NCBI GenBank assembly: GCA_003864455.1
Contig: BGZN01000004.1
Span: 3,125 to 67,124 of the forward strand
Direction: 5' to 3'
Length of the DNA stretch: 64,000 nucleotides
From: Candidatus Termititenax aidoneus
GTDB taxonomy: Bacteria; Margulisbacteria; Termititenacia; Termititenacales; Termititenacaceae
Of this stretch, positions 6,667 through 52,376 are shown in pieces. Made by a program: the position numbers and the translations under genes. Numbering within the stretch: the first letter of the stretch is position 1; the number at the start of each line of letters is the position of its first letter. The notes under the pieces were generated by a model. That model was not told where the DNA came from. It saw only the letters and a program-made list of their open reading frames with translations, and searched no databases.

Positions 6667-6670
6667 GAAC

Positions 6671-14805: not shown

Positions 14806-14808
14806 GTC

Positions 14809-14943: not shown

Positions 14944-14961
14944 TGACGCACCTCTTTCAAA

Positions 14962-15399: not shown

Positions 15400-15426
15400 G
15401 GGGTTATTATAACAAATCCACGGATT

Positions 15427-15930: not shown

Positions 15931-15954
15931 CGTGGCTTCTTTCTTGAAAATCTG

Positions 15955-16719: not shown

Positions 16720-17071
16720 CAGTATACCTATGGTTTAGTGATAGAGTATCTTATAAAGATAAGCATAATATTTCTTTATATTATGTCAATACGCTATATT
16801 TACGGTATACTAACAAGAGTTTTGGTAAAGAGGCTTGTTAAGAATATCGGGTCATATTTAATTAACTCGATTTTGTTAAATGTTTCAGGGATAGCGCTAC
16901 TACCAGAACCAACCAGAAAAGTTTTACACTCGTTCAATGTGTGCTGGTAATCGTTTTTAACAGATATGCTTAGCAGCTTCCTAAACAGAAAACCCAAAAC
17001 CGCCAATAACGCCACAAGTGGCGTTGCCTTGCGTCTCGGCCAGTCGCTCCCGACCCCGACCCGCCGAAACA

Positions 17072-17192
17072 GTCGCCAAAAAGAAATTAAAAACGCCAAA
17101 TGCAGTGCGGTTTTTTGCCCCCCAACCTGAAACCGTCTTAAAAAACAACCTTGCTCTATTCACCAAAAGCTGTGATTTTGGGTGGTTTGGGG
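17072..17192. repeat. left arm of a 122-bp inverted repeat pair
   Basis: gtcgccaaaaagaaattaaaaacgccaaatgcagtgcggttttttgcccccc...gggtggtttgggg matches the reverse complement of 25542-25663, with 3 small indels or mismatches. Confidence 0.85.
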
Positions 17193-17208
17193 TATAATGG
17201 AGGTGTTA

Positions 17209-17573
17209 TGGTAATCCGCCAAGAATACTTAAATCAACTAAAACTTCTCAAAGATCAAAAGATTATAAAAGTCATCACTGGTATTCGCCGTAGTGGCAAA
17301 TCCACACTTTTGGAACTTTTTCGCGACGAATTGGAAAAGCAAGGTATCAAAAAATCTCAGACTCAATCTTTCAATTTTGAGGAAGAGAAAAATGTGGATC
17401 TGCGAGATTGGCGAAAATTACATCAAACAATAGAGAAAAAACTCGTCTCCACCGAGATGAACTATATTTTTTTTGACGAAATCCAAAAAGTTGAGAAGTT
17501 TGAAGAGGTAGATTTTGTAGTGGAAAAGGGTAGCGGCGTGCGAAAATACTACCAAGTGGCATTGAAAAAATAA
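17209..17573 (+). pseudogene. truncated ATPase (AAA_14/DUF4143 family), N-terminal fragment
   Basis: Walker A VITGIRRSGKSTLLEL and Walker B IFFDEIQ match the about 400-aa DUF4143 ATPases, but the ORF stops after about 120 aa. A TATAAT at 17193-17198 immediately follows the left inverted repeat. Confidence 0.55.
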
Positions 17574-17613
17574 ATGTTGTTGATTGGCTATTAAATAAAG
17601 GAAAACAAAACTT

Positions 17614-19101: not shown

Positions 19102-20210
19102 TGACTACACAAACCGTAAAATTAGGCGAGGTGTGCGAGATAAACAGAGCGTCAATCGGTAAGGATTACGCTTTTGATAGCATTGAATACCTTGATACTT
19201 CCTCGGTAACGAGCGGCACTTTTTCTGAAACTGAACATTTGAATTTGGCTGACGCACCAAGCAGAGCAAAACGCATTGTCCAAAACAACGACATTGTGAT
19301 TTCAACAGTTCGTCCAAATTTAAGGCATTTCGGCATTATTCAAAACGCCAAACCCAATATGGTTGTTTCAACAGGTTTTGCTGTTTTAACAATTGACGAA
19401 AGCAAAGCAGATTACAGTTATATTTATTATCTCCTTACAAAAGACGACATAGTAGATTATTTATCAGCAGTCGCCGACCAAGCAGTTAGCACATATCCCG
19501 CATTCAATCCCTCTGTCTTGGTAAACCTTGACCTCTCCCTTCCTCCTCTCCCAGAGCAGCAGCGCGTAGCGGGGATTTTGGGCAGTTTGGACGAAAAAAT
19601 CGAAAACAACCGCACCCTCGTCCGCACCACCGAAGCCCTCGCCCGCACCATCTTCAAAAAACACATCGCCGCAAATGAGGAAAACAAGGGGTGGGAAACG
19701 GTAAAATTAGGTGATGTTTGCGAAGTTTTTATCGGTGGAGATGCTCATAAATATGACATAGTAAAGCAATCTGATAAAACTCATAACGTACCAGTATTTT
19801 CCAATGGCATTGTCAATGAAGGACTTTACGGTTATACAAAAAACGCAGAAGTAAAGGCGGGTTCGGTGACAGTCAGTGCCAGAGGAACTGTTGGTTTTAT
19901 AAAGCTACGAGATACTGATTTTGTTCCTATTGTCCGTTTGATTGCGGTTATTCCAAAAGAAGACGATGTTAGCGGCTATTTTCTTGAAGCAGTTTTACAA
20001 AAAGAAACAATTAACGCAAGTGGGTCAAGCCAACAACAAATAACGGCACCAATGATTAAAAACCTTAGAATCAAACTCCCTCCCGCCGCCGTCTTGCAAT
20101 CGTTCGATGCCGTCGTAGAGCCATTGTTTGCCGAAATCGGCTTTCTCACCCGCGAAAACCAAACCCTCGCCGCCACCCGCGACAAACTTTTAAGGAAACT
20201 AATTAAATGA
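19101..20210 (+). CDS. hsdS: type I restriction-modification system specificity subunit
   Basis: Two target-recognition domains separated by conserved central (LPPLPEQQRVAGILGSLDEKI) and C-terminal (LPPAAVLQSF...LFAEIGFLTRENQTLAATRDKLLRKLIK) repeats. Start overlaps the hsdM stop. Confidence 0.85.
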   Translation: MTTQTVKLGEVCEINRASIGKDYAFDSIEYLDTSSVTSGTFSETEHLNLADAPSRAKRIVQNNDIVISTVRPNLRHFGIIQNAKPNMVVSTGFAVLTIDESKADYSYIYYLLTKDDIVDYLSAVADQAVSTYPAFNPSVLVNLDLSLPPLPEQQRVAGILGSLDEKIENNRTLVRTTEALARTIFKKHIAANEENKGWETVKLGDVCEVFIGGDAHKYDIVKQSDKTHNVPVFSNGIVNEGLYGYTKNAEVKAGSVTVSARGTVGFIKLRDTDFVPIVRLIAVIPKEDDVSGYFLEAVLQKETINASGSSQQQITAPMIKNLRIKLPPAAVLQSFDAVVEPLFAEIGFLTRENQTLAATRDKLLRKLIK

Positions 20211-22363
20211 GTATGCTAACTAAAATTACAGATTACACTCACAAGTCTTTCAAGAAGTTCACGAACCCACCTGACTTAGAGTTCAGACAAAAAAACATCG
20301 TCTTTGGCTATAATGGCAAAGGCAAAAGTGCTTTTGCTCTCGGTGTTAAAGCGGAATTTCTGAAAGATGCGTCAAAAACCGACGCCCATTTTCGTTTGTT
20401 TAATAAGGAATACATAGGCAAGGATTTAATGCTTGAAAATAGCAATGGAAAACTGAAAGGAGTTAAAGCAAATTTCAGCGAAAAAGATGTAACTGCCGAA
20501 ACCAGAATAAAGGAGTTGGAATCTGAAATTGTTAAGCCAGAAGATATTAAAAAACAAGAAGAGGAAATTCTAAAAATAAGGAAAGATGCAAGAAAAGAAG
20601 TTGATAGTATTCACGACAGGAAAAAAGGTAAAGCCAGAATTGCGAAAAAAGAACAGAGTAAACCTGTTGAAGATATAATTAAACTTTACGAAAGCGACTA
20701 TACGGAAGCATACAAAATTGAAACAGATGATGAAAAGTTACTAAAAACAACAGGCGACGACTCAATCTCGAAAGAAATAGAGAAATTTGAAAGTTTGCAA
20801 AATCTAACTTTCACAACTTATTCAGAGACAGAAATAAACGAATTAAAAGCCATTTTTGAGGAAAAATTTGGCGAAGATGTTGAAATTCCGGCAAATGAAA
20901 TTGTGAATTGGATGTCACAAGGTTTGACTTTGCATAAAGATGGCGACAGTTGCAAAATGTGTGGCGGGAAATTGGATTATCAGTCGGTAAAAACGAAGAT
21001 AGAACAATACAAAGACAACAGAAAACATCAAGCGATTGAGAAATTAAAATCTTTCCAAACTAAACTGAAAAAATCCTCTGATGAGATAGAGAGTATCGCA
21101 AAACAAGAAAAAACCTATTCCGCAATTATTGGGGAATCGGTCAAAGAATCATTTCAAAATATAATTGGAAGCAAAACCTCGTTTGAAGAATTAGACAAAT
21201 CATTGCAAGCGAAGATTGAAGACATCTTATCTTCAAATAGTTTTGATTTTGATAAATTGAAATCTGTTTCTGAATCAATTAAAACAGAAATTGAGAGAAC
21301 ACAGAGGGAGAAAAGCCAACAATTAACCACCTTGCGAAACAAACAAAGCAATTTAGAAACATTGGTCAAAGGTTCAATCGGTTTAGAAGTCAAAAATTCT
21401 CAAACCATCAAAGATAAACTGGCAGAGATTAAGAAAAAAGAAGATGATTTGAAGAAAGCTAAAGATAAAAACACTGAAACTCAAGGAGAAATTCAAAAAC
21501 TGAAAACTTCTAAAAGCCCGACCAAAGATTTTGCAGAGTTTGTATCTCAAATTTTGCAAGACATCAACATCTCGCTGAAAGTTGAAGTAGAAGCGACAGA
21601 CAATAACTACATAATCAAAAGTTCACACGAAGAGGTATTACTTACCATAAGCGACATCAGCGAAGGTGAGAAAAACTTGTTGGCTTTGTTATTCTTTTAC
21701 TACGAACTTTTTAATGATAATAAACAGACCGAAGTCAAAACCGATATTGAGTTGGTTATTGTTGACGACCCCATTTCAAGTATGGACGACGCAAACAAGT
21801 TTTATATTTTGGAATTGATGAAAAACATTTTGAATTTAGAATCGCAACAAGTATTTGTTCTAACTCATAGTTGGGACGATTTCTGCAATCTTTCTTATGG
21901 AAGAAAAACAGGTGAAGCAACCTCAAAGTTTTCGACTATTGAAATCAGAAAGAATAACGGAAAAAGTTATTTAGAAAAAGTTGGAAACATTGAAAAACCA
22001 TATAAGCACTTATTCAAAGAACTCTACGATTTTTCGCAGAAGTCAGAAAAAGATATTGGAACTGATTGTGAAATCTACCATTTTCCGAATGTGATGAGGA
22101 GAGTTTTTGAAGAATGGTATAGTTTTAAGATTGGGAAAGATTTGAATTTAACAAGTAATCAACTTGACCGTCTGGCAAATGATTTTGCTATAACCGATAC
22201 AAATAAAAAAACAAAATTAGGAATGCTACTCAAAGTTTGCAACATTCTTTCTCATTCAATCAACACAACAAAAAACCCGCAAGAAATTCATCAATCATCA
22301 AAATTTTTGATGAAATTGATTGAAGACAACGATAGATTACATTTTAATTCAATGAAGGGATAA
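20207..22363 (+). CDS. RloC/PrrC-like anticodon-nuclease candidate (ABC/SMC-type ATPase with coiled-coil and CxxC insert)
   Basis: Walker A GYNGKGKSAF; a long Glu/Lys-rich coiled coil containing CKMCGG (zinc-hook-like); Walker B/D-loop IVDDPISSMDD and H-loop LTHSWDD; C-terminal MRRVFEEW...NILSHS fits the PrrC anticodon-nuclease R-x3-E...H motif. Located between hsdS and hsdR, as prrC is. Confidence 0.55.
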   Translation: MSMLTKITDYTHKSFKKFTNPPDLEFRQKNIVFGYNGKGKSAFALGVKAEFLKDASKTDAHFRLFNKEYIGKDLMLENSNGKLKGVKANFSEKDVTAETRIKELESEIVKPEDIKKQEEEILKIRKDARKEVDSIHDRKKGKARIAKKEQSKPVEDIIKLYESDYTEAYKIETDDEKLLKTTGDDSISKEIEKFESLQNLTFTTYSETEINELKAIFEEKFGEDVEIPANEIVNWMSQGLTLHKDGDSCKMCGGKLDYQSVKTKIEQYKDNRKHQAIEKLKSFQTKLKKSSDEIESIAKQEKTYSAIIGESVKESFQNIIGSKTSFEELDKSLQAKIEDILSSNSFDFDKLKSVSESIKTEIERTQREKSQQLTTLRNKQSNLETLVKGSIGLEVKNSQTIKDKLAEIKKKEDDLKKAKDKNTETQGEIQKLKTSKSPTKDFAEFVSQILQDINISLKVEVEATDNNYIIKSSHEEVLLTISDISEGEKNLLALLFFYYELFNDNKQTEVKTDIELVIVDDPISSMDDANKFYILELMKNILNLESQQVFVLTHSWDDFCNLSYGRKTGEATSKFSTIEIRKNNGKSYLEKVGNIEKPYKHLFKELYDFSQKSEKDIGTDCEIYHFPNVMRRVFEEWYSFKIGKDLNLTSNQLDRLANDFAITDTNKKTKLGMLLKVCNILSHSINTTKNPQEIHQSSKFLMKLIEDNDRLHFNSMKG

Positions 22364-22365
22364 CT

Positions 22366-25300
22366 ATGAATACAATCTTAAACGAAGACCAAATAGAACA
22401 AATGACGCTGGAGATTTTCGGCGAATTGGGCTGGACTGTAAAGCACGGCGCACAAATCAGCCGCGATGCCGACCTTTACGCTCCACTGCCGGATGGTGCG
22501 ACCACTTCCGCCGAGCGTGATTTTGGCGATGTGGTGCTGCGTGGTCGCTTGGAGCAAAAAATCCGCGAAATCAACCCGTGGCTGCCGAGCGAAAAGTTGG
22601 ACGAGGTGTTGCGCAAAATCACCCGCACACACGGCGCAAACGACATTGACAACAACCGCCAGTTTCACCACCTTTTGACCGAAGGTGTGGACACCGAATA
22701 CCGCGACGGCGGCGAAGTAAAAACCCGCAAAGTGTTTTTTGTGGATTTTCAACAACCCGAAAACAACGACTTTCTCGCTGTCAACCAACTGACCGTGATT
22801 CAGGACGGCGTCAACAAACGCCCCGACATTGTGCTGTTTGTCAACGGCTTGCCCCTCGGTGTAATTGAACTCAAAAACGCCGCCGATGCCACCGCCGACC
22901 TTTCCGCCGCTTACAACCAAATCCAAACTTACAGGGCAAAAATCTCAAATCTGTTCCGTTTCAACGAACTCTGCGTGATTTCCGACGGACTTGACGCAAA
23001 AATCGGCACTTTTTCCGCCCCCGAAAACCGCTTTACCGCTTGGAAAACCATTAACGGCGAAGAAATACAGCGCAGCGTGCAGATTGACACGCTGACACGC
23101 GGAGTGTTTGAAAAATCGCGTGTTTTGGACATTATCAAAAACTTCATCGTCTTTGAACGCGACGACACCAACTACATCAAAAAACTTGCCGCCTATCATC
23201 AGTATTGGGTGGTGAATAAAGCGCTAGCGACGACCACGCAGGCAATCGCAGGCGACCATCGCGCCGGTGTCGTCTGGCATACGCAAGGCAGCGGCAAGTC
23301 GCTTTCTATGGTGTTTTATGCCGGTAAGCTGATTGCGACGAGCGAACTGCACAACCCGACCCTCGTCATCGTTACCGACCGCAACGACCTCGACGGGCAA
23401 CTTTACAGCACTTTTCATAACTGTGCCGATTTGCTCCGTCAAACGCCCGTGCAAGCCACGAGCCGTGCCGATTTGAAGGACAAACTCAACCGCGAAGCCG
23501 GCGGAGTGATTTTTACTACCATTCAAAAGTTTGAAGAAAGCAACGAAGCAATTTCTGGGCGTTCAAATATCATCGTCATTGCTGACGAGGCGCACCGCTC
23601 GCAATACGGGCTGAAAGCGAGAGTTGGGCGTGACGGCGAGGTGGCGTATGGTGCGGCAAAATATATGCGCGACACGCTGCCCAACGCTTCGTATATCGGC
23701 TTTACCGGCACGCCGATTGAACTTGACGACCGCTCCACGCCGGCGGTGTTTGGCGATTATATTGATATTTACGATGTGGCGCGTGCGGTAGAAGACGGCG
23801 CAACAGTGCCGATTTATTACGAATCACGCTTGGTTGATTTGGGATTCGACGATGAGACGAAAAAGTGGATGGACGAAGAAGTTGACGCGCTTTTTGAAGA
23901 TGTGGAAATGAGTAAGAGCGAGCAACTGAAAGCCGAATTTGCCCAGAAAGAAGCCATTGTCGGCAACCGCGAGCGCGTGAAGTTGATAGCCCGTGACATT
24001 GTGGAGCATTTTGAAAAACGCGAGGAAGTTTTCGCCGGCAAGGGAATGATTGTGGCAATGAGCCGTCAAATTGCGGCGTCGCTTTATGAGAAAATTATCG
24101 CCCTGCGTCCCGACTGGCACAGTGACGAGGTAACTTCCGGCGCACTCAAATGCGTTATCACCGGCGCGTCGAGCGACCCGGCGAATTTGCAAAAACATAT
24201 CCGCAGCAAACCCGACCGCGTGATTGTGGAGAAACGCTTCAAAGACCCGAAAAGCGACCTGAAACTCGTGATAGTGTGCGATATGTGGCTGACCGGTTTT
24301 GATGTGCCGCCGCTTCACACGATGTATCTTGATAAACCGCTGAAAATGCACAATTTGATGCAGGCAATTGCCCGCGTGAACCGCGTTTATCCCGACAAAG
24401 TCGGCGGGCTGGTGGTGGATTATCTCGGCGTGGCGGGAGCGCTGCGCGATGCGATGGCGGTTTATGCTAAATCCGGCGGAACTGGGACGCAAACGGTTGA
24501 TGTTGAGGCGGCAGTGGTGGAAATGAACCGCCGCGTGGAAGTGGTGCGCGATTTGTTCCACGGCTTTGATTATGCGGCGTTTTTCACCGGCTCGGCTGGG
24601 AAAAAATTAGAAATAATGCTGGACGCCGAAGAGTTTATCTTGGGTAAAGTGGAAGACGGCGAAGCGCGCGTCTGAAACGCGAAGTTCACGGACTCTACAA
24701 GGCATTTTCGCTCGCAATGCCGCAACCCGACGCACTCGCAATTCGTGAAGAAGTGGCATTTTTCCAAGCAGTGAAAGCCCGCCTGACCAAAGCAGGTGAA
24801 ACCGGAAAATTAGACAAGGACTACAAAATACAGTTGCAACAGATTGTGGACAAAGCGATTCAACCGCTCGGCATTGTGGACGTGCTTGAAGCGGCGGGGG
24901 TTGAAAAACGCGAACTGCCAATGCTCTCAGAAGAGTTTTTGGCGGAAATCCGCAATTATAAGCGCAAAAGTTTGGCAGTCAGAGCATTGGAAAAACTGCT
25001 TGCTGACCAAATCCGCGCCGGGTTTGCTCACAACGCCATCAAGAGCGAACAATTCAGCGAACTGATTAAAAAGGCATTAGACCGCTACAAAAACGGCACT
25101 ATCGAAGCGGCGCAAATCATTGAGGAGTTGATAGACATTGCCCGCAAATTGAAGGCAAACATAGAAAATCGCCCCGCCGATATGACCGATGACGAAATCG
25201 CCTTTTACGATGCCCTCGCCGACAACGGCTCCGCCCGCGAAGTCCTCGGCGATGAACAACTCCGCGAAATCGCCCGCTATCTCGTGGAAAAAGTCCGCAA

Positions 25301-25469
25301 AAACATCACGACCGATTGGAGCGTGAGAGAAAGTGCAAGAGCGCAGTTGAAATACGAAGTTCGCGTAGCGCTGAACAAATTCGGCTACCCGCCGGATAAA
25401 CAAGCCATCGCCACAGAGCGCGTGCTGCAACAAGCCGAAGTGTTAGGCAATCAGGTTTCAGAGCAGTAA
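22366..25469 (+). pseudogene. hsdR: type I restriction enzyme R subunit, interrupted by a frameshift near 24655-24675
   Basis: 22366-24675 encodes the N-terminal, helicase and motor domains (DEAH-like IVIADEAHRSQ). The C-terminal domain continues in another frame from about 24661 (LKREVHGLYKAFSLAMPQPDALAIREEVAFFQAVKA ... to 25469). The junction lies in a gcgcgcg run. Confidence 0.8.
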
Positions 25470-35115: not shown

Positions 35116-35190
35116 AAATTAAAATACAAAATAAAAATAATTTACAGAAAATTTTCAACAAAAAATCCAACGGCAAAATACATTAAGAAA

Positions 35191-35600
35191 TTTCGATGCA
35201 TTTTACAGGTATATTTTATCGATAAGCGGGTAATTACTGTTTTGTCAGTAGATGATTTTTGAGGAAGTAAAAATATTTGTTTATGCTTACGCGCGGCAAA
35301 TATCTTTACTTGCGCTCGGCGGCTGAGTTTCGGACGGTGAGCTTGGGACGGTGAGCTTGTCGAACCGTCGAACCGTCAAAGCCATCGTAAAACGGTCATT
35401 TCGACATCTCGACTTCGCTCGATGACCACAGGCTCAATGACCGAGTAGGTTACGTTCGCTACGGGCAAAGATATTTGCCGCGCTATTTGTGAAAAAACGA
35501 AAAAATGGAGTTTTGTCATGAAAAAGTTTTTAAATTTAAGATCTGTTAATAATTGCCCCCCCCCCATTTTTGGCGTAGGTACGCTGAAAAGCTAAGTTTT
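35191..35600. repeat. copy A of a roughly 430-bp repeated intergenic element (conserved ends, variable inverted-repeat core, poly-C tract)
   Basis: 5' block ttcgatgcattttacaggtatattttatcgataagcgggtaattact and 3' block ggagttttgtcatgaaaaagtttttaaatttaagatctgttaataattgCCCCCCCCCCatttttggcgtaggtacgc are shared with 43425-43870. Inner inverted repeat gcgcggcaaatatctttac / gcaaagatatttgccgcgc. Confidence 0.8.
35539..35575 (+). promoter_or_regulatory. candidate promoter with a C10 homopolymer in the -35/-10 spacer (TTGCCC-17-TAGGTA)
   Basis: ttgccc at 35553-35558 and taggta at 35576-35581 flank a spacer dominated by a C10 run (35556-35565). It is about 120 nt upstream of the 35698 ATG, and a good Shine-Dalgarno aggagg is present. 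Confidence 0.35.
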
Positions 35601-35697
35601 CTCCACTCTCTATTTTCTCCTAATAAACATCGAATGTTAAACGCCGCTGCCGCGGTTGTCTGAGATTTGGTGTTTAAAAAAAATTTAGGAGGAATTT

Positions 35698-37983
35698 ATG
35701 AGTATACAAACTATAAATAATAACGGAGTCGACTCTGGGGTTTTTGTCAAACAGCAGACCGGAAGAAGGGTTTCGGGAGAAGAGCGCAGGCTTAATGATG
35801 CTCTGTCCAGAATAAATCTAGACAGGGGCAACGATAATATTTATGGAGGATTTAATATCAGTAATGAAGAAATGCAGGCGGCGATTAGGCAAGACAGGGA
35901 GAATACGAGCGCCAATGTAGCCACTGTTTTTAAGAAACTTAACGAGACAGATGCGAGAATACTTTTCAATAGTTTTGACAGCGAGACTCAGGCACAATTG
36001 ATGAGCCATCTTTATGGAAGCAGAGGCAACGAAAATTTTACAAATATGATAAATAGCGAGCTGGACAATCCACAATCCAAACTTAATACCACCGTTTTAA
36101 ACGGTGAGCAAACCGGTGCTATTGCCGCCAGAGCTCTGACCAAAGGTTTGTTGGTTGCCGCCACTGGCCTCTTCGCCTCCGGCTCTACAGCCGAGACCGC
36201 TCAAAACCGTTTGACCAACTTATTGACAGGAGAGCATTCCGGAGTATTTCAAACGGCAATGCGTCAAGTGTATCAAAAATCTGAGCCCGGCAATGGTTTC
36301 ATTTCAAACTCTTCTAACAACGCCAGGGACGAGATCGAAAGATTTTTAAAGAAAACGGATAATCCAGAGCTGGCCGTTTTTAAAGCGGAGTTTACGCACA
36401 GCGGGATTACCAGCAGCGGCGCAGTCGTGCGCGCAGACAAGAACGCAGACGGCAAATATGATCTTAATGAATTGAAGAGTATGAATTCTGAACAAATCCT
36501 GCGTTTGAGTTGTACGGATGAACATTTTTTAGACAACATAGAAATACAAGGACCCAACGGCCCCTTAACGGGAGAGGCCAAAATCGACGCGCTGAAAAAT
36601 ATTTTCACGGAAATTGCGGCTAAAGAAAGAATGGACGGCGTGGCAATAGCTGTTTTTGTGGGAGCTACTTTGGCTACATTGACCGCTGGATTAGCGTCAG
36701 GCGTGGTAGCCACTGTGCTTGCGGTGGAAGGAACAGCTATGGCCACTCTTACCACAGGCGGCGTCATGACTGGCCGGCCAGCGCAGGCTTTGGAAAATAT
36801 CGCCAAGGAACAAATTGCTTCCGGCAATCCCCAGCAAATCCAAAGTTTTTTAGAAAGGTCAGACGCCTTTGGCAGATTGGGAGAAGACCGGACGAACAAC
36901 ATCATCGATAGTTTGGCTAACCTTCCGGACACCAAAATTGAAGCATTTTATACAGCGGTGGAAAATTTGCCGCCGGAACAACGCGCTAATATCTACGCAA
37001 GGATAGCCAAGGCTTTGCCCGACATGCAGCAAGGAAGGTATATAAATAATCCTAACAGCAGCAGAGGAGAACAAATAGAAAATAGGCGTTCAAACCCTAA
37101 CGGAGCGGCACGGCTTGTCAGGCTAAATCCAGAGAACAAATTTCAAGAGCTAAAGAGAATAATGGACACTGGAACCACAATTGAGCTAGCAAGTTACCTT
37201 GAAAAAAATCCGCCTACAAAAGCCCAAATCGCCCGCCTTACTCCGGACGATAAAGCTAAATTAGTCAATGCGGCCGAGGGATTGCAGAGTTTTGGTTCTC
37301 CTGCAGGAGATACAATAATTGCCTTAATGAGAGAAACACCAGACATGCAGTCTGAGATGCTTGCTGCTGTTCTAAATATGGATACTGCTACCAAAGAGCA
37401 GATAGTTACTACAACGCCGTCGCCCAAGAGCGAGACAATTGTTAGTGAACTGATTATTGAAGAAGAAGGTGGATTAACGAAAACCACCGATCAAGAGTCG
37501 GTTTTAAATTTATTCACCACAAACCAAAATGGAAACATCGAAGATGATAATTCAGCGCCAACAAATACAATTGAAGAAAACCAACAGCCCCCACCAGTCT
37601 CAGCAAACATAGCACGAAATGAACAAGCCGCTTCAAGCAGAAATTACCAAGTTTCTACTGTAACTTATCAAGATAACCCAAAATCCTCTGAGACGCAGTT
37701 TATTCCCAGGACTTACGGAATAACGCCACCATCTAATGGCAATGGAATTGAATATCTTAACAATGGCCAACGGATAATGACTGTGGGGAACGATACATTT
37801 GAGTTTGACAGCACATTCCAAGACAATAAAATAAAACTTGGTGGTCGGGAATATACTGTTCAAGGATCAAACCCAGTACATTTTAGAGACAATAATGGCA
37901 ACACTCACTATCTTGGCTGGGACGCTGCGACTAAAAGTTGGACTTATAGAAAAGAAGAAGGAGTGAACCTCAACGCCGCTTAA
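35698..37983 (+). CDS. large hypothetical protein (761 aa) with no signal peptide, a polar Asn/Ser/Thr-rich N-terminus and a central hydrophobic segment
   Basis: ORF with a strong ribosome-binding site; central hydrophobic stretch GVAIAVFVGATLATLTAGLASGVVATVLAVEGTAMATLTTGGVMTG (nt about 36637-36775); no recognizable catalytic motif. Confidence 0.5.
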   Translation: MSIQTINNNGVDSGVFVKQQTGRRVSGEERRLNDALSRINLDRGNDNIYGGFNISNEEMQAAIRQDRENTSANVATVFKKLNETDARILFNSFDSETQAQLMSHLYGSRGNENFTNMINSELDNPQSKLNTTVLNGEQTGAIAARALTKGLLVAATGLFASGSTAETAQNRLTNLLTGEHSGVFQTAMRQVYQKSEPGNGFISNSSNNARDEIERFLKKTDNPELAVFKAEFTHSGITSSGAVVRADKNADGKYDLNELKSMNSEQILRLSCTDEHFLDNIEIQGPNGPLTGEAKIDALKNIFTEIAAKERMDGVAIAVFVGATLATLTAGLASGVVATVLAVEGTAMATLTTGGVMTGRPAQALENIAKEQIASGNPQQIQSFLERSDAFGRLGEDRTNNIIDSLANLPDTKIEAFYTAVENLPPEQRANIYARIAKALPDMQQGRYINNPNSSRGEQIENRRSNPNGAARLVRLNPENKFQELKRIMDTGTTIELASYLEKNPPTKAQIARLTPDDKAKLVNAAEGLQSFGSPAGDTIIALMRETPDMQSEMLAAVLNMDTATKEQIVTTTPSPKSETIVSELIIEEEGGLTKTTDQESVLNLFTTNQNGNIEDDNSAPTNTIEENQQPPPVSANIARNEQAASSRNYQVSTVTYQDNPKSSETQFIPRTYGITPPSNGNGIEYLNNGQRIMTVGNDTFEFDSTFQDNKIKLGGREYTVQGSNPVHFRDNNGNTHYLGWDAATKSWTYRKEEGVNLNAA

Positions 37984-38003
37984 CTAGTTTTAAAAGGCAC
38001 GGC

Positions 38004-41453: not shown

Positions 41454-41698
41454 ATTTCGCGGTTATCTTAATTAACGTTAATCTTAAATTCCCTCCAATT
41501 CACTTGGCATAAATCTTGCAGTTATACCTATAAACAGGTTGGCAAAAAAGTTAGAAATTTTTGTAAAGACTTGCGGCCAAAAAATCTACAAAGGAGGCGG
41601 TTTATGCAGAAAGACCCTTTATTGCTAAAAACGAAAATACGCGGCGGAGAAAAACTTTATTTGCTCGGTCTGCTCAAAAAGCAGCTCAAAAGCCTCAA

Positions 41699-42874
41699 TT
41701 AACGTCTTTTCTTTGGGGACTTAACTTTTTTGGGGCTGTGCTTTTGGGCCGGACGGCCAGACTTTTTTCGCGCGGCTTTGCGGCGCGGCCTATTTCTGGC
41801 CGGCAGGTCAAACTCCTCAGCAAAAGCGCCGTCGACATCCACGCCGAGGTCGACATTTTCGGAGTTTTTGAGCAAAGCTTTGTAGCGGTCTAAAATTTGC
41901 GCCAGTTTGCGCGAATACCAATTTTCCAAAATATATTTGGAAAAAATCGGCAGCCGCCGCTGCAAACCCAAACCTTGTTTTTTCAAAATTTTTTCCAGCG
42001 CGTTCAGTTGCTTGGCGTGATCCGCGCCGCTTTTCTTTTCCTCCGCCAGATCGTAAGAACCGATGTCCCGCACGCCGGCTTTGATAAAATCCAAAATATT
42101 TTCATTGTTCGCGCCGGGCACAGTGATCGGAATATCGTTCGGCAAAATCCGCCGCGCCAGCTCCAGCGTCTTGAGCATTTCCGCTTTGCTGATCTGATTT
42201 TTGATCTCCAGCTTGCTGTTATTGATCGGCAGATAATTTTGCAAAATAACATTTTGAATATTGCCGTATTCCGCGTGCAGAGCTTTGATGATTTCCAGCG
42301 CTTCGCGGCGGCTTCTGTCCGACTCGCCCAGTCCCACCAAAATACCCGTGGTTACCGGCACTTTGCCGAGACCCGCGTAAGAAATCGTGTCCACGCGCGA
42401 CTGCAGAGTTTTACGCGGCGAATATTTTTCCAAAATCTTTTCATCGGCGCAGTCCAGCATCATGTAAATCGATGCCACGATCCGCCGAATACCGTTCCAA
42501 CTGCTTTCCGGATCGCGCAGCATTTCTTCTTTGGCGATGTAACCGATATTCAGCGAAGGCAGCAGGCCTTCCAGAAAAGCCAGCTCGCAAACTGTGTACA
42601 CATATTCAATGTAAGAATTGAAGCCCCAGAGATCGAGGCGCGCGCGCACCGCGGAAAAATTATCCGGCCGCTCGCCGGCCACGAAAATCACTTCCTTGAC
42701 GCCGGCTTTCTTGGCCTGCGCGCAGTGCTTGATAGTCGAGTACGGCACAGCCAGTTCAAAAGCCGCCTGATCCGTGTTGTTCGCTGGAAAATCACAGTAG
42801 TCGCACAAACTGGAGCAAATCCGTGAGAGGCTGACCGTAGTCGAACGCGAATAAGTTACGATATTTTTATCCAT
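41699..42874 (-). CDS. radical SAM enzyme of the CofG/CofH/MqnC/MqnE family, with a Lys/Arg-rich C-terminal tail
   Basis: CSSLCDYCDF Cx3Cx2C cluster; NIQNVILQNY resembles the IQEVIxQNF motif of FO-synthase/futalosine enzymes; tail ...RPRRKAARKKSGRPAQKHSPKKVKSPKKRR. Confidence 0.55.
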   Translation of the reverse strand: MDKNIVTYSRSTTVSLSRICSSLCDYCDFPANNTDQAAFELAVPYSTIKHCAQAKKAGVKEVIFVAGERPDNFSAVRARLDLWGFNSYIEYVYTVCELAFLEGLLPSLNIGYIAKEEMLRDPESSWNGIRRIVASIYMMLDCADEKILEKYSPRKTLQSRVDTISYAGLGKVPVTTGILVGLGESDRSRREALEIIKALHAEYGNIQNVILQNYLPINNSKLEIKNQISKAEMLKTLELARRILPNDIPITVPGANNENILDFIKAGVRDIGSYDLAEEKKSGADHAKQLNALEKILKKQGLGLQRRLPIFSKYILENWYSRKLAQILDRYKALLKNSENVDLGVDVDGAFAEEFDLPARNRPRRKAARKKSGRPAQKHSPKKVKSPKKRR

Positions 42875-42904
42875 AAAACTCCTAAAAAAAATTAAAAAGA
42901 AAAC

Positions 42905-43279
42905 TTACCTGAAGCACAGGCGCCGGATGATCCGGAAAAACATAAATACCGCGGCGAACACTACGCCAAAAGCAGCCGCGCCTTTTTTATCCAGCACAGT
43001 TCTTACATCGCCCTCGATATTGTCCGAAATCGTGATGAGCGAACGCACCGATCCGGTCTTGAGATTTCTGGCTACGACCACCGCGTTGCCGCAATTGGTC
43101 TGATTGACATTCTGCGCTTTGAGCAAGCCGATGCCGGAATGATCGATGTCCGCGCGGCCGGCATTGATCGAACTGACGCCGGATTGCGAGCAATTCACCA
43201 TTTCCGCATAAATCGCTTCGGTTGTCTGACGGCTGACTTTTTCCTCTTTTTTCGGACTTTTTTTGCCGTTTTCGCTCAT
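42905..43279 (-). CDS. hypothetical protein with a C-terminal hydrophobic anchor
   Basis: 124-aa ORF with a basic N-terminus and C-terminal ...AAFGVVFAAVFMFFRII. Confidence 0.3.
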   Translation of the reverse strand: MSENGKKSPKKEEKVSRQTTEAIYAEMVNCSQSGVSSINAGRADIDHSGIGLLKAQNVNQTNCGNAVVVARNLKTGSVRSLITISDNIEGDVRTVLDKKGAAAFGVVFAAVFMFFRIIRRLCFR

Positions 43280-43424
43280 TTTGGTTTTTCCTTAAATGTA
43301 TAAAATTTCAAAAAAAAGCAGGTTATTTTACCTTATTTTTACTTGCCTTGTCAAACTCACCGTCAATTTTTGGCGTATTTAGGCAACTTTTTGATAAATG
43401 AATTAGTAAAAAACAACAACAAAA

Positions 43425-43870
43425 TTCGATGCATTTCACAGGTATATTTTCTCGATAAGTGGGTAATTACTTTTGTGTAAGTTTGTGAGCAGGTGAACTC
43501 TTTTAGAGCGAATATGTTTGCTTGCACGCGGAGAATATCTTTACCTGCGCGCGTGGTGGCTTCTCACTTAACTTCGCAGCCACGCTGCTTGTTAAGTTCG
43601 AACCAGACGCGCTCCGGCAAAATATTCTCCGCGCTTAACTTAAAGTAAACATGTGATTTTAGGCAGTGAAAATATTTGCTTCAAGCGGCCGTAACCTTCA
43701 GTGCTATGCCGTGGCCGCGGAAGTAAATATTTTCACTGCCGGAAAATTAGATGTGTTTTTTGAAAAATTTGTACAAAACAAAAAACGGAGTTTTGTCATG
43801 AAAAAATTTTTAAATTTAAGATCTGTTAATAGTTGCCCCCCTCCCCCCCCATTTTTCGTGTAGGCACGCG
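43425..43870. repeat. copy B of the repeated intergenic element (C6-T-C8 tract)
   Basis: Shares its end blocks with 35191-35600. Nested inverted repeats gcgcggagaatatcttt/aaaatattctccgcgc and cagtgaaaatatttgcttcaagcggccg/cggccgcggaagtaaatattttcactg. Contains a REP-like palindrome also seen at 1535 and 50632. Confidence 0.8.
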
Positions 43871-43983
43871 GAAAATCTAGAGTTTTTCACAAACGCGCTA
43901 AACAATAAAACCCTGTCCGGCTAAAGCCGGTTCGGGGTTTTTTGCGTTTGTGATAAATCTAAAAAAGAAAGGGGGTGTTTTTT

Positions 43984-44319
43984 ATGGTCGATTTCAATCC
44001 TAATTTTCAGATTAGTGGGTTTAAGCCAAAATTTGACTTAAACGAAGTCAAATTTGGGGGCAATCATTCTGACAGCACCAAAAAGTTTGCCAATAATGTG
44101 CATCAGAAAATTCAAGACAGCTTTGCCGAACAGGACATTAAGGCAAAAGTAGTTGTTAGCGCCGGATTTAAAGATGGACAACCAATACTTTACATAACGG
44201 CATATGACAATGGCAAACCTGTAATTAAGGACGCTGAAAACGCAATACAGAACAATTTGCCTGACGGCGCTTCTTTGACTGTCTATGACCACAAAGCTGA
44301 AATTCTTTTGCGTGAATAA
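43984..44319 (+). CDS. hypothetical small protein (111 aa)
   Basis: ORF with ribosome-binding site aaagggggtg, followed by a terminator. Confidence 0.4.
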   Translation: MVDFNPNFQISGFKPKFDLNEVKFGGNHSDSTKKFANNVHQKIQDSFAEQDIKAKVVVSAGFKDGQPILYITAYDNGKPVIKDAENAIQNNLPDGASLTVYDHKAEILLRE

Positions 44320-44335
44320 CAATTGCAAAAAGGCA

Positions 44336-44372
44336 TGCACACCCCTAGTCTGTCAATCAGGCTAGGGGTTTT
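44336..44372 (+). terminator. rho-independent terminator
   Basis: cacccctagtctgtcaatcaggctaggggttttcttg is a GC-rich hairpin followed by a T-run. Confidence 0.5.
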
Positions 44373-47960: not shown

Positions 47961-50554
47961 CTTGCGGCCAGCGCTTTTAACTGCTCTTCCACAATTTTAA
48001 ATTTTTCGGCGTAATCTTTTTCTTTTTCTTTTTCTTTTTCGATAACTTCCGGCGGCGCTTTTTCGATAAAACTTTTATTGGCCAATTTATTTTTGATGCG
48101 GTTAATTTCGGTTTGGTATTTATTTTTTTCTTTTTCCAAGCGGGCAATTTCGGCCTGCAAGTCAATGAGCTTGTCCAACGGCACAAAAATCTCCGCGCCG
48201 TTGATCACCGCATGCGAGGCATTACGCGGCTTGGCAGCCAGTCTAGCCGCCAGATCGATTTTTTCCACGCCGGAGAGCTGCTGAATATACGGCTTGGCTT
48301 CGGTCAAGGCCTCGGCCACAGCCGGATCGCCGCAGAGAATAATCAAATCCGCTTTTTTCGCCGGCGCGACGTTCATTTCCGCGCGGATATTGCGCACCGC
48401 GCGGATCAGCTCAATAACCACAGCCATTTTTTTCTCGCGCGCCGGATTGAGCAGGGCTTTGTCCGCCTGCGGCCAATTCGCGTTGATCACTTTGCCGGCA
48501 TTGCCAAGCTTAGCCCAGATCTCTTCTGTGATAAAAGGTGTCAGCGGATGCAGCAGGCGCAAAATGCCGTTGAACACGGTCAAAAAAGTTTCTTTATGCA
48601 GCCCCAGTTTGGACATCTCGATATACCAGTCGCAAAATTCATTCCAAACAAAATCATACAAGCCCAGCGCCATGTCGCCGAAATAAAAATTGCGCAGCGC
48701 GGAGTCGGTCTTTTGGATCACCTGCTGATAGCGCGAAAGTATCCATTCGTCAGCCGGTGATTTTTCCGCGCTAAATTTATTGTCCGCCAATTTCAGCAGA
48801 ACAAAACGCGCGACATTCCAAATCTTATTCATGAAATTGCGGCTGGCCAAAACTTTTGACGCCGCCAGCTTGAGGTCCTGTCCGCCGGCCGTCGCCATCG
48901 AAGCCAGCGTAAAGCGCAGTGCATCCGCGCCGTATTCTTTAATCAACTCCACCGGGTCGACAGCGTTGCCGGTGGATTTGCTCATTTTTTTGCCGTGTTC
49001 ATCGCGAATCAAGCCGTGGATCACGACTTTGTGAAACGGCGCTTCTTTTTGAAATTCCAAACCCATAGTAATCATGCGCGAAACCCAAAAAGTGATAATG
49101 TCGTAGCCGGTTACCAGCAGCGCGGTCGGGTAATATTTTTTTAAGTCGGCGGCAGCGTCCGGCCAGCCCAGCGTAGAAAAAGGCCAGAGCGCTGAACTGA
49201 ACCAGGTGTCCAGCACGTCCGCATCTTGAGTTAATTTATCCGAGCCGCATTTGGGGCAGGTCTGCGGATCATCTTTGGCACAAATGATTTCACCGCACTC
49301 GCAGTACCAAACCGGAATGCGGTGTCCCCACCAGATCTGGCGCGAAATGCACCATTCGCGGATATTTTCCATCCAGTCAAAATAAACTTTGCTCCAGCGC
49401 TCAGGATAAAATTTTAGGCGGCCGGAACGCACAGCCTCGACAGCGGGCGCGGCCAGTTTAGGCATATCCACAAACCATTGCGGCGAAAGATACGGCTCGA
49501 TCACATCGTGGCAGCGGTAACAGCGGCTGATTTTATTTTCATAATCCTGCACCGAATCCAGCAGGCCTTTTTCCTCCAGATCGGTCAGCGCCAGCTCGCG
49601 GGCTTTGAAACGATCCAGCCCTTTGTAGCGCAGCGGCACATTTTCGTTAAGCAGTCCCGAAGTGTCCATGATCGCCAGCGCCGGTAATTTATGGCGTTTG
49701 CCGACTTCGTAATCGTTCACATCATGCGCCGGAGTGATCTTGACCACGCCCGTGCCAAATTCGCGGTCGACATATTCATCGGCAATAATCGGGATTTTTT
49801 TGTCGGTCAGCGGCAGCAGCACTTCTTTGCCGATCAGGTCTTGGTAACGTTCGTCCGCAGGATGCACAGCCACGGCCGTGTCGCCGAATAAAGTTTCCGG
49901 CCGCGTCGTCGCCACCACCAAATATTTTTTAGGATTTTCGGCCAGTTGATAACGTAAATGCCAGAGCTTGCCGGCGTTTTCTTCGTATTCCACTTCGACA
50001 TCGGACAACGCCGTATGACAGCGCGGACACCAGTTGATAATGCGCGGGGCTTTGAAAATCAGACCTTTTTTGTACAGTTCGACAAAAACTTCACGCACCG
50101 CGCGCGAACAGCCTTCGTCCATAGTAAAACGCTCGTGCGCCCAATCGCAGGATGCGCCAAGCAAACGCAGCTGGCTGGTGATCCGGCCGCCGTATTCTTC
50201 TTTCCAGCGCCAGACTTCCTCGATAAATTTTTCACGGCCGAGATCATGACGCGTCCGGCCATCCTGGGCTAATTTTTTCTCCACAACATTTTGCGTGGCA
50301 ATACCGGCGTGGTCGGTGCCGGGCACCCAGAGGACATTGTCGCCCAGCATGCGCCGCCAGCGCACCAAAATATCCGGCAAAGTGTCGTCAAGCGCATGCC
50401 CCATGTGCAAAGCGCCGGTTACATTGGGCGGCGGCATGACAATCGCGAACGGCTCACCGGCGCCTTTGGGCGCAAAATCTCCACTTTTTTCCCAATCCGC
50501 GTAAATTCGCGCTTCGATCTCCGAGGGGTTATAAACTTTTTCCATTTCGGACAT
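47957..50554 (-). CDS. valS: valine--tRNA ligase
   Basis: HIGH region PPNVTGALHMGHA, KMSKS, the editing domain, and the C-terminal coiled coil. Confidence 0.9.
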   Translation of the reverse strand: MSEMEKVYNPSEIEARIYADWEKSGDFAPKGAGEPFAIVMPPPNVTGALHMGHALDDTLPDILVRWRRMLGDNVLWVPGTDHAGIATQNVVEKKLAQDGRTRHDLGREKFIEEVWRWKEEYGGRITSQLRLLGASCDWAHERFTMDEGCSRAVREVFVELYKKGLIFKAPRIINWCPRCHTALSDVEVEYEENAGKLWHLRYQLAENPKKYLVVATTRPETLFGDTAVAVHPADERYQDLIGKEVLLPLTDKKIPIIADEYVDREFGTGVVKITPAHDVNDYEVGKRHKLPALAIMDTSGLLNENVPLRYKGLDRFKARELALTDLEEKGLLDSVQDYENKISRCYRCHDVIEPYLSPQWFVDMPKLAAPAVEAVRSGRLKFYPERWSKVYFDWMENIREWCISRQIWWGHRIPVWYCECGEIICAKDDPQTCPKCGSDKLTQDADVLDTWFSSALWPFSTLGWPDAAADLKKYYPTALLVTGYDIITFWVSRMITMGLEFQKEAPFHKVVIHGLIRDEHGKKMSKSTGNAVDPVELIKEYGADALRFTLASMATAGGQDLKLAASKVLASRNFMNKIWNVARFVLLKLADNKFSAEKSPADEWILSRYQQVIQKTDSALRNFYFGDMALGLYDFVWNEFCDWYIEMSKLGLHKETFLTVFNGILRLLHPLTPFITEEIWAKLGNAGKVINANWPQADKALLNPAREKKMAVVIELIRAVRNIRAEMNVAPAKKADLIILCGDPAVAEALTEAKPYIQQLSGVEKIDLAARLAAKPRNASHAVINGAEIFVPLDKLIDLQAEIARLEKEKNKYQTEINRIKNKLANKSFIEKAPPEVIEKEKEKEKDYAEKFKIVEEQLKALAAS

Positions 50555-50768
50555 AAGGCCACAATAATAGCATAAAATAGCCGCTCTAAGCATTTATAAA
50601 CTTGTCACTTCGGCCGCTAAAGCGGCCTTGTGGCTCTCACTTAACTTCGCGGCGGCGCCGCTTGTTAAGTTCGAGTGCGCGGAAGAGGACGACTGCGCCG
50701 GCTACCGCCGGCTTGTGGCCCTAATTTTTTTCTCTATACTTTTTACGTATAGTCATTTCAAACATATT

Positions 50769-50853
50769 AAATTACTTGGTGCGCGGAAGAGGACTCGAAC
50801 CTCCAAGCCTTGCGGCACAAGATCCTTAGTCTTGCGCGTATACCAATTCCGCC
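50769..50853 (-). tRNA. tRNA-Leu (anticodon TAG)
   Basis: Reverse complement GCGCGGATGGCGGAATTGGTATACGCGCAAGACTAAGGATCTTG...GGTTCGAGTCCTCTTCCGCGCACCA; long variable arm. Confidence 0.85.
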
Positions 50854-50911
50854 ATCCGCGCGTCAAAGAGCAAACAACTATACAACAAGAGCAAAATTTT
50901 TTCTAGAAAAA

Positions 50912-51437: not shown

Positions 51438-52358
51438 ATGTATATGGCAAGTAATTACACAGACAGTTATGACGGCATAGCGAGCCGGGAGCCGTTGTCG
51501 GCGGAGAAAGTAACAGCGGCGCTGAACAAAATGGAAAAAGTGGCCAATAAAGTATCCAAGGCGGAATGGGAAGCAAATGCTGGTAGTGAGCAGAGCAGCG
51601 ACAGCAAATATCCTACCTGCGCGGCGGTCAATAACGCGGTCGAGGCAGTCAGCGCTAAGTTGAGCGACGATGCGCAGGCGCTTAATATTAAGATAGATGA
51701 AATGAACTTTGCTGCGGAGAAAGCAATAAACAAGATCCAGACAACCGAGACATGGGAGGACAATAAAAGCAGTAATGAAAAATACCCCAGCTGCAAGGTG
51801 GTCAATGCGGCAATCACGGAAAAGTTCGAGGGCGCGGAAAAAATAGTTAATAGAGTGGATTACACGCTATGGGATAGCAACACGGATGAGGATGCAAAAT
51901 ACCCCACCTGCGGGGCGGTTACTCATGCGATCAATCTCGCAATTGAGGCGATTGATGCTATGATCGCGGATGTCAATGAGAGGATCGCGACTGTTGTCCA
52001 CGACGATATTCCGCTTCTCAATGAGGAGATCGCGACTGTCAATGAGAGGATCGCGACTGTTGTCGACGACGATATTCTGCTTCTCAATGAGAGGCTCACT
52101 GCTGTTCAGGGCGAGCTTACGGCGCTGTCCGACGCGGCGGAAAGAACAGCCAATAAGGTCATTAAAGAAAATTGGTCAAGCAATAAGACCAATGCTACAA
52201 AATACCCCAGCTGCGCGGCTGTGCAGTTGGCCATAGAAACGGCCGCCATTAATACCGTTAATAATGTTAAAACAACTTCAATATCCAGCTCTTCAACGGA
52301 TGACAAATTCCCGACGGCCAAGGCTGTCCATGACTATTTCTGGAGTGTATTTCATTAG
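51438..52358 (+). CDS. repeat protein with a recurring KYP(S/T)C-x-AV module and a coiled-coil segment
   Basis: Modules at ...SDSKYPTCAAVNNAVEAV, ...NEKYPSCKVVNAAITE, ...DAKYPTCGAVTHAINLA, ...ATKYPSCAAVQLAIETA, ...DDKFPTAKAVHDYF. Internal roughly 45-bp DNA repeats (51982-52026 and 52048-52092) encode the hexadecapeptide repeats IATVV(H/D)DDI(P/L)LLNE(E/R). Confidence 0.5.
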   Translation: MYMASNYTDSYDGIASREPLSAEKVTAALNKMEKVANKVSKAEWEANAGSEQSSDSKYPTCAAVNNAVEAVSAKLSDDAQALNIKIDEMNFAAEKAINKIQTTETWEDNKSSNEKYPSCKVVNAAITEKFEGAEKIVNRVDYTLWDSNTDEDAKYPTCGAVTHAINLAIEAIDAMIADVNERIATVVHDDIPLLNEEIATVNERIATVVDDDILLLNERLTAVQGELTALSDAAERTANKVIKENWSSNKTNATKYPSCAAVQLAIETAAINTVNNVKTTSISSSSTDDKFPTAKAVHDYFWSVFH

Positions 52359-52376
52359 TTTTAAAAGGGGTGTTAT

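Follow-up and report, generated by a model that had tools for sequence, protein, structure and literature searches.

A modular element duplicated upstream of unrelated orphan genes in Candidatus Termititenax aidoneus: a candidate composite control region

We analysed a stretch of 64,000 nucleotides (nt) of Candidatus Termititenax aidoneus (contig BGZN01000004.1 of assembly GCA_003864455.1, forward strand, positions 3,125-67,124; hereafter the window, whose numbering is used unless a relative's contig is named). It contains a modular intergenic element of about 450 bp in two copies, A and B, each composed of a conserved 5' block, a hairpin module, and a conserved 3' block that runs into a tract of cytosines and a structured leader. 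Each copy precedes an orphan gene, and a third complete copy, C, was found in a relative. We give about an even chance to the reading that these copies form a family of composite control regions, each heading a lineage-specific and fast-evolving gene cassette, with a shared promoter and leader cassette serving contingency-type orphan genes. Candidatus Termititenax is an uncultured ectosymbiont whose hosts are termite-gut spirochaetes, and to our knowledge nothing is known of its gene regulation. If unrelated lineage-specific genes at different loci do stand under the same control region, they would make up a small set handled by the organism as one class; variable proteins that are exposed at the surface, secreted or engaged in interactions are plausible candidates. 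The element would also show how new genes can gain ready-made expression signals.

Two copies in the window and a third in a relative

The 5' blocks lie on the plus strand at 35175-35249 (copy A) and 43408-43482 (copy B), and a three-way alignment with copy C gives the core TCGATGCATTT..GTATATTTTnTCGATAAGyGGGTAATTACT. Between A and B they are 85% identical over 75 nt, rising to 94% in the 47-nt core. The 3' blocks (35490-35565 versus 43770-43845) are 89% identical, with 95% in a 62-nt core, and the likeness resumes past the C run at 80% (35558-35603 versus 43843-43888). A search of the window for either block pattern gives exactly two occurrences, where shuffles predict 0.00, confirming the shared blocks proposed by an earlier sequence-only reading of this DNA, at 80-95% identity and with only 2 occurrences in 64 kb. 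When the A/B segments are compared with shuffles, the 5' block reaches z = 14.6 and the 3' block 14.2, the left arm of the hairpin module 6.5 and its right arm 5.9, and the hairpin interiors stand at -0.1, indicating that the arms are homologous between the copies and their contents are not. The central parts of the copies thus differ, as that reading had also stated. Its estimate that each copy ends about 120 nt before a gene start has to be revised, as the common sequence stops 95-98 nt (A) or 96-114 nt (B) before the start codons.

Copy A belongs to a cassette on the plus strand at 35116-38003, which comprises an AT-rich spacer, the copy, its leader and an orphan gene for a protein of 761 amino acids (aa). 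The cassette of copy B, also on the plus strand (43385-44368), comprises a spacer, the copy, its leader, a 111-aa orphan gene and a terminator. The gaps that hold the two copies measure 582 and 695 nt and are both among the three largest intergenic gaps of a tightly packed 64 kb. For the 761-aa protein (NO1_0417), a word-index search returned its own record only, and a HMMER scan of 1.8 billion representatives added one protein with similarity confined to 55 C-terminal residues. The 111-aa gene (NO1_0424, 43984-44319, plus strand) is a real coding sequence. It has a single homologue, 76% identical, from which it differs mostly at third codon positions (29:15:10). A structure search with its AlphaFold2 model (pLDDT 80.6) gave only weak alpha/beta-sandwich matches with TM < 0.5. 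We considered whether the two downstream genes are paralogues and rejected this, as their proteins are unrelated. The earlier description of a modular, duplicated upstream cassette before unrelated genes therefore stands: both copies have the same orientation, and in a relative the third copy stands before different genes again.

Contigs of relatives (L001-L004 and others) were retrieved via GltX or via homologues of the 124-aa neighbour protein (42905-43279). In L003, a 188-aa gene abuts the acyltransferase gene with overlapping stop codons (TTAA), so that all of 35116-38003 is gone, and L004 is likewise without it. At the B locus, L086 has SpoU, 132 nt and then the 124-aa gene, with cassette B absent; L082 and L083 keep the Phd/PIN pair and have 116 nt in place of 43385-44368; and L085, L087 and L088 carry other genes. 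The cassettes are missing whole in these relatives, implying that each copy arrived, or survives, as a unit with its orphan gene. These arrangements also indicate that the B site is a variable hot spot.

Parts of the element are preserved elsewhere. L090, from a JGI termite-gut metagenome, and L091, a Logan assembly, carry orthologues of the 3' half of copy B at 87.6% nucleotide identity, extending over the 3' block, a run of 15 cytosines (C15), the leader, the orphan gene and the genes that follow; in the 3' block core, B and L090 are 82% identical. L084, from the same JGI sample, has a diverged 3' block core (nhmmer E = 6e-12) beside the upstream region of its 124-aa gene, with a tRNA-Leu about 50 nt downstream and without 5' block, hairpins or C run. 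Its similarity ends exactly at TTGCC, where the C run of the other copies begins. In the same contig (1-2113, compared with 42863-43394 and 49473-50862), the 124-aa gene, tRNA-Leu and ValRS are joined in inverted order relative to T. aidoneus and three relatives. The junction falls exactly at the 3' block copy. It may mark a breakpoint of recombination or inversion at the repeat; otherwise the metagenome contig may be a chimera. The L084 arrangement also raised the idea that the 3' block is a tRNA-Leu promoter; we rejected it, as the tRNA has its own better and closer promoter-like site and the upstream region of the T. aidoneus tRNA aligns only weakly.

The complete third copy was found in L092, a contig reached via a protein that shares its C-terminus with the 761-aa orphan. 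Copy C has a 5' block (E = 1.7e-15), two hairpins, a 3' block, C15 and an A-like leader. This leader is 79-82% identical to that of copy A up to AGGAGGAATTTATG, a likeness that reaches the start codon, and the genes beyond are unrelated. Downstream of copy C stand genes of 312 and 532 aa, which have no relation to the 761-aa protein beyond the C-terminal stretch, and the neighbour gene of copy C differs from the neighbours of copy A. As copy C lies at another locus with other genes, the control region is conserved while cargo and position change.

Beyond these relatives the element was not recovered. A scan of 85 other loci found the blocks in none outside the close relatives. The exact 5' and 3' block patterns had no match in GTDB species-representative genomes, JGI metagenome contigs or IMG/VR, collections that do not contain the source genome, and blastn against phage and plasmid collections gave no match. 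No family of Rfam 15 matched: at gathering score the window yielded three tRNAs only, and permissive scans of both copies gave chance miRNA-like hairpin matches.

Candidate promoter, cytosine run and leaders

Under the control-region reading, the working core would be the 3' block, with an A-rich UP-like tract and a predicted sigma70-type promoter (TTGTCA/TTTATA, 18-nt spacer, TAAGAT). In the five-way alignment, the block core spans 35490-35555 in copy A (A-rich tract, TTGTCA at 35513-35518, 18-nt spacer, TAAGAT at 35537-35542) and 43770-43835 in copy B (TTGTCA at 43793-43798, 18-nt spacer, TAAGAT at 43817-43822), both on the plus strand. The predicted hexamers thus occupy equivalent positions in A and B, downstream of the A-rich tract. 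Their 18-nt spacing is kept in copy C and L090 despite an indel, and the -10 hexamer keeps A2 and T6 unchanged in each of 5 sequences. The hexamers themselves drift in C and L090, the -35 to TTTATA and the -10 to CAACAT or TAAGAT. Inspection of the blocks by eye revealed no sigma54, sigma28 or Bacteroidetes-type promoter motifs. From this arrangement we infer a transcription start just upstream of the 10-15-nt C run, which would place the run about 7 nt into the transcript.

The tract is a C10 homopolymer in copy A (35556-35565, plus strand) and C6-T-C8 in copy B (43836-43850, plus strand), uninterrupted as C15 in the orthologues L090 and L091. It is 15 nt long in copy C as well; the B tract (15 nt) equals its L090 orthologue in length, and the A tract has 10 nt. 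In a run-length scan of the 64 kb, C or G runs of at least 8 occurred nowhere except in the two elements. A small hairpin of 10-11 pairs follows (35567-35590 in A and 43852-43875 in B, plus strand), and A, B and L090 keep it with one compensatory change. We propose that the transcript passes this hairpin into the structured leader, and that the C run is the likeliest variable part of the element, changing by slippage. Such changes could alter where the leader begins or how it pairs, or put an overlapping mini open reading frame (mini-ORF) into another frame.

The tract invites comparison with the contingency loci of Neisseria, Haemophilus, Campylobacter and Helicobacter, the poly-C of Bordetella fim and the poly-G of Treponema pallidum tpr. 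As in those systems, an exceptionally long run of 10-15 C stands in a 5' control region before variable, lineage-specific genes. Its length differs between the paralogous copies, and in one copy a T breaks the run, which would make the tract more stable. Unlike in those loci, the tract follows the predicted -10 rather than lying between the -35 and -10 or in the main ORF, and no length polymorphism was observed between the two available orthologous contigs.

Two types of leader follow. The A-type leader hairpin (35613-35697, plus strand) contains an anti-Shine-Dalgarno (anti-SD) sequence, UUUUCUCCUAAU, that pairs with the ribosome-binding site (RBS, AGGAGG) of the orphan gene. Leaders A and C share a consensus of 35 pairs in which 8/8 varying pairs stay paired, 7 of them via G-U. 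As changes through G-U pairs are tolerated only in RNA, this points to selection on the RNA and not on the DNA. In the B-type leader, a terminator-like hairpin together with a T run (43907-43943, plus strand) stands about 40 nt before the start codon. Its stem is kept in L090 with a compensatory change from CCGGC/GCCGG to CCGGT/ACCGG, and this leader is 90% identical to that of L090, above the orphan coding sequence (84%) and other spacers (67-84%). RNA folding of the element, suggested by the sequence-only reading, thus revealed conserved leader structure, with SD sequestration behind A and C and a terminator-like hairpin behind B. The conservation pattern indicates that the leaders are transcribed and functional, and transcription of the leaders requires a promoter upstream of them, as a promoter in the 3' block would supply. 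With an A-type leader sequestering the SD sequence and a B-type leader carrying a terminator-like hairpin, expression of the orphan genes would be gated after initiation.

Several observations weigh against the control-region reading. The full copies known number only three, two in the 64-kb window and one in L092. The 5' block is strongly conserved, yet the reading gives it no explained function beyond membership, together with the upstream hairpin module, in what would be the duplicated unit. The candidate promoter matches only 9/12 consensus positions and drifts to TTTATA and CAACAT in copy C, and the number of sigma70-like matches in the region is not above that of shuffles. Copy C has lost 2/11 pairs of the small hairpin that follows the C run, which weakens it, and the C run has the identical length (C15) in the two independent orthologous contigs L090 and L091. 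Finally, the invariant ATGAAAAA and the G-rich stretch 6-7 nt upstream of it can alternatively be read as an RBS and the start of a mini-ORF, for which a promoter further upstream would be needed.

This last point leads to a different account of the same sequence, which we regard as improbable. It treats everything from the 5' block to the start codon as a long structured 5' untranslated region, transcribed from a -10-only promoter at the conserved TATATT of the 5' block, with the 3' block providing an RBS and a mini-ORF (MKKFLN..C/Y-Pro(n)). The length of the C run would set the frame and act as a translational phase switch, the frame deciding whether ribosomes enter and open the anti-SD or terminator hairpin. 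In copy A, the motif GGAG-N7-ATG (35518) of the 3' block would open a small upstream ORF that enters the C run and would encode poly-proline. Invariance of ATGAAAAA in 5 copies, with its G-rich stretch, agrees with this account, as does the constraint on leader structure at the RNA level. Adding or removing one C toggles short and long forms; in A and C the long forms extend across the anti-SD, and in B and L090 they stop within the terminator loop. A long-range pairing, GGGUAAUUA : UARUURCCC, is predicted in the minimum free energy structure of A and the centroid of B, and tolerates the three observed variants.

The mini-ORF itself, however, shows little sign of being maintained. A conserved small-ORF peptide was rejected, as the peptide is not conserved, the frame varies among copies and the ORF is cut off in L084. 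In A versus C, 7/7 base changes fall at codon positions 1 or 2; the mini-ORF of L084 has only 10 codons; and the present frames follow no clear pattern among copies. A long open frame in one of three frames is statistically ordinary, and the TATATT box lacks a -35 box or TGn motif. As the mini-ORF ATG lies between the predicted -35 and -10, the promoter and mini-ORF readings of the 3' block are mutually exclusive.

Hairpin module, palindromes and inversion

Between the blocks, copy A has a single hairpin module of the type called H1 (35291-35483), whose perfect 17-nt arms (35291-35307 and 35467-35483) enclose 159 nt. Copy B has two hairpins. B1 (43527-43633) has 15-nt arms (43527-43541 and 43619-43633), 93% matched, with 77 nt between, and corresponds to the second hairpin of copy C, H2, reversed; B2 (43657-43745) has 26-nt arms (43657-43682 and 43720-43745), 88% matched, with 37 nt between, and is of the H1 type reversed. 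The inverted repeats of the sequence-only reading are therefore real, with arms of 15-26 nt and 37-159 nt between them. Its two nested pairs in copy B are tandem hairpins, of which the first, B1, contains a further inner hairpin (43562-43601, 40 nt). B1 and B2 are plain long hairpins (z = -7.5 and -7.9), and the 159-nt interior of copy A is not self-complementary (z = -0.75).

The arms also occur outside the element. The sequence of the copy A arms recurs as a perfect stand-alone palindrome, AGCGCGGCAAATATCTTTGCCGCGCT, at 63054-63079 between two minus-strand genes (folding z = -7.2), and a stand-alone copy of the B1 inner hairpin (CTTAAC..GTTAAG) lies at 50635-50674. The motif GYAAAKATATTT has 15 occurrences against 2.4 expected, and units of this palindrome family are found in L082 (within its 116 nt), L002 and L092. 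Between the A and B1 arms, two adjacent positions differ (CA/TG versus AG/CT) with pairing preserved. In L002, an extra CTTAAC..GTTAAG hairpin at 700-729 corresponds to 41575-41590. T. aidoneus has just 14 nt there, so that gain or loss of small hairpins between strains is directly evident.

Judged by these features, the arms behave as REP/REPIN-like palindromes. They share with the REP/BIME and REPIN elements of Proteobacteria short, GC-clamped, imperfect intergenic palindromes, present singly (63054-63079) or as inverted doublets around a spacer (A, B1, B2), and they nest, cluster, vary between strains and occur in either orientation. They differ in that only a handful of units was seen in 64 kb, no Y1 transposase (RAYT) was found among the scanned ORFs of the 64 kb, and the host phylum is Margulisbacteria. 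The hairpins further lie between two conserved non-palindromic blocks, which REP/BIME clusters lack. With respect to the hairpin that defines a REPIN, B1 and B2 are self-complementary long hairpins, and copy A consists of two inverted units whose interior is not self-complementary.

Comparison of the copies shows that the module, which the outer arms delimit to about 225 bp, has been inverted. Copy A reads 5' block - H1(+) - 3' block, copy C reads 5' block - H1(+) - H2(+) - 3' block, and copy B reads 5' block - H2(-) - H1(-) - 3' block. The C module aligns with the B module with a score of 142 as its reverse complement (161/243 identical) and 14 directly, and the non-palindromic interiors match only in reverse (32/41 versus 18/43, and 55/73 versus 38/71). 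The loop of B2 equals positions 505-528 of L092 on the opposite strand at 24/24 bases, and the single hairpin of copy A is oriented as H1 of copy C. As the 5' and 3' flanks of the module are collinear in A, B and C, the module bounded by inverted repeats has flipped at least once, in B relative to C and A, copies that lie at different loci or in different genomes.

For the control-region reading, REP/REPIN-like hairpins would recombine with one another, and we propose that the module is flipped in copy B because palindromic hairpins can do so. The hairpins would then more likely be an insulator, an operator or a recombination-prone spacer than the promoter itself. A promoter scan found no sigma70-like site inside the A segment; the minus strand of the B segment has one 9/12 match, which C and A do not conserve. 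None of the hairpins of the module has a T run after it.

The alternative is a programmed invertible switch, in which a site-specific recombinase acting in trans flips the module at each locus. Expression would then follow from the module's orientation, with or without a contribution from the length of the C run. Inverted repeats with the common core GCRAATATCTTT bound the module, both orientations occur between collinear flanks among A, B and C, and several loci have the same flanks. The cargo genes are orphan and fast-evolving, which is typical of phase-variable genes, and contigs of relatives break at or near the module. Nevertheless, the module contains no conserved promoter or terminator, whichever way it is read, and the orientation differs between paralogous loci and not within one locus. 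The arms occur also as a simple stand-alone hairpin, and ordinary recombination between palindromic repeats gives the same picture. Pfam matches to recombinases were absent from the roughly 56 ORFs scanned in the window and from the ORFs of L092, and none of the scanned window ORFs is a transposase. We think such a switch unlikely, much as we do the mini-ORF account.

The likeness to an invertible promoter switch noted by the sequence-only reading accordingly holds for the two orientations of the module among copies and fails for the segments, which contain no conserved promoter; its remark that no invertase is nearby agrees with our scan of the window ORFs. Invertons such as fimS of E. coli, Mpi-dependent promoters of Bacteroides fragilis and the RecV-dependent cwpV and flgB switches of C. 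difficile resemble the element in having 15-26 bp repeats that flank an upstream segment of about 100-230 bp. The element loci share their flanks, the segment occurs in both orientations across copies, and a recombinase may act in trans: in the Bacteroides Mpi promoters and C. difficile RecV switches, one recombinase serves many loci. Unlike classical invertons, the segment has no recognisable promoter or terminator and consists of long self-complementary hairpins, no recombinase was found for it, and its orientation is known between copies only.

A bolder proposal combines these elements into an undescribed combinatorial phase-variation cassette. A portable region capturing or travelling with orphan genes would contain a recombinase-flipped module and a slippage-prone poly-C tract in series, read out by RNA structures that hide the RBS or terminate transcription; the poly-C tract may open the leader or be part of a mini-ORF within it. 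To us this appears rather improbable. We know of no description of phase variation in the candidate phylum Margulisbacteria. If the module and the C run are switches, phase variation would be extended to this phylum in an unusual combined architecture. If they are not, the element would still be a clean case of REP-like palindromes reshaping a promoter region.

Mobility, integron-like features and neighbouring loci

The copies could instead be a non-autonomous mobile element of the BOX, Correia or miniature inverted-repeat transposable element (MITE) kind, or a REP/BIME cluster flanked by conserved sequence, spreading by itself and lying upstream of genes only by accident. The modular layout, in which conserved ends enclose one hairpin unit or two, the clear mobility of the small hairpins between strains, the presence of copies at different loci in related genomes, and the 3' block of L084 without the other modules are all consistent with this. 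Yet the 5' and 3' blocks form no terminal inverted repeats, as no inverted repeat exists between them, and comparisons of empty and filled sites of the cassettes revealed no target-site duplication. The window has two copies in 64 kb, no transposase was found in it, and the 85 other loci have none bar those of close relatives. Moreover, similarity extends through the leader to the start codon, which argues that the unit that moves or persists includes expression signals. The sequence-only reading had considered a regulatory role less likely for a high-copy MITE oriented at random; in the available data the copies are few, and 3/3 full copies point at the downstream gene. On balance, we rate self-spreading slightly below the two switch accounts.

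Pneumococcal BOX (boxA-boxB(n)-boxC) and neisserial Correia elements are close in design, with an A-B(n)-C layout, conserved ends, a variable number of hairpins in the middle, positions near gene starts, and potential for an outward promoter and RNA structure. The element differs from them in that its end modules are not complementary terminal repeats, its copy number is apparently far lower and its conservation extends through a gene-specific leader, and sequence similarity is absent (Rfam and blast negative). Across all the families compared here, the element shows the full defining set of features of none.

Two candidate boundary motifs were also considered. AAAAGGCAYG, shared after the stop codons of both orphan genes, was rejected as a terminal inverted repeat at the cassette ends, as it is present in the cassette-less L082. 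The sequence ATTTTTGGCGTATTTAGGC at 43366-43384 ('ATTTTTGGCGTA' at 43366) was considered as a target duplication of the sequence after the C run; it is a weak match and is conserved in relatives upstream of the 124-aa gene. It resembles the post-C-run sequence of both elements, with 12/12 identity to copy A, a likeness that a shared binding site, a recombination footprint or chance could explain.

Highly improbable is an integron-like cassette relic, in which the hairpins are attC-type sites flanking cassettes of orphan and toxin-antitoxin genes that lack promoters: a variable hot spot does unite orphan genes with two toxin-antitoxin pairs, and the inner hairpin of B1 (ACTTAAC...GTTAAGT) fits the RYYYAAC/GTTRRRY cores, but attC sites measure about 57-141 nt and this hairpin only 40 nt, inside another hairpin and not at a cassette boundary, the remaining arms have no core sites, the hairpins lie upstream of the cassette genes along with promoter-like sequence, the conserved blocks have no integron counterpart, and the window has no integrase.

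According to the ORF scan of the window, the genes around the copies are housekeeping genes (LptC-like, GltX, ValRS, IspF, SpoU and ApbE), and the two toxin-antitoxin pairs directly follow the gene of copy B. In L001, the closest relative via GltX (94% aa identity), a 1.2-kb insertion with a 320-aa orphan lies between gltX and the zinc-ribbon gene (1257-2438), and genes for an SDR and a flavin reductase (4360-6696) stand where T. aidoneus has cassette A. Accessory genes thus turn over fast at several intergenic sites. The homologues P0004 and P0005 of the 124-aa neighbour are named 'transcription termination factor Rho' by JGI. The protein has no Pfam hit and a hydrophobic C-terminal tail, and the Rho name looks like an annotation artefact.

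Further features of the window lie apart from the element. In the third large intergenic gap, adjoining tRNA-Thr, tandem repeats occupy 7226-7750; there are four to five of them, about 100-160 bp long, and every one terminates in a hairpin with a 10-bp stem. A defence-type island at 14206-25469 contains a Zeta-toxin-like ATPase, an AbiEi/AbiEii pair, and a type I restriction-modification system composed of HsdM, HsdS and an AAA_13 protein, together with HsdR. The HsdR gene is apparently split into ORFs 22366-24675 and 24717-25469, as its T1RH-like C domain runs on across the gap between both. The 3' end of tRNA-Leu(aag) has a 17-nt partial duplicate (gtgcgcggaagaggac, 50676-50692 versus 50777-50797) about 100 nt downstream of the tRNA gene. 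It sits amid several small hairpins and resembles the att-type scar of an integrated element now lost. Finally, two adjacent orphan ORFs of 306 and 548 aa at 51438-54023 contain seven copies of a 55-nt coding repeat (AAATAYCCnnnCTGC...) as well as other internal repeats, and possibly encode variable repeat proteins.

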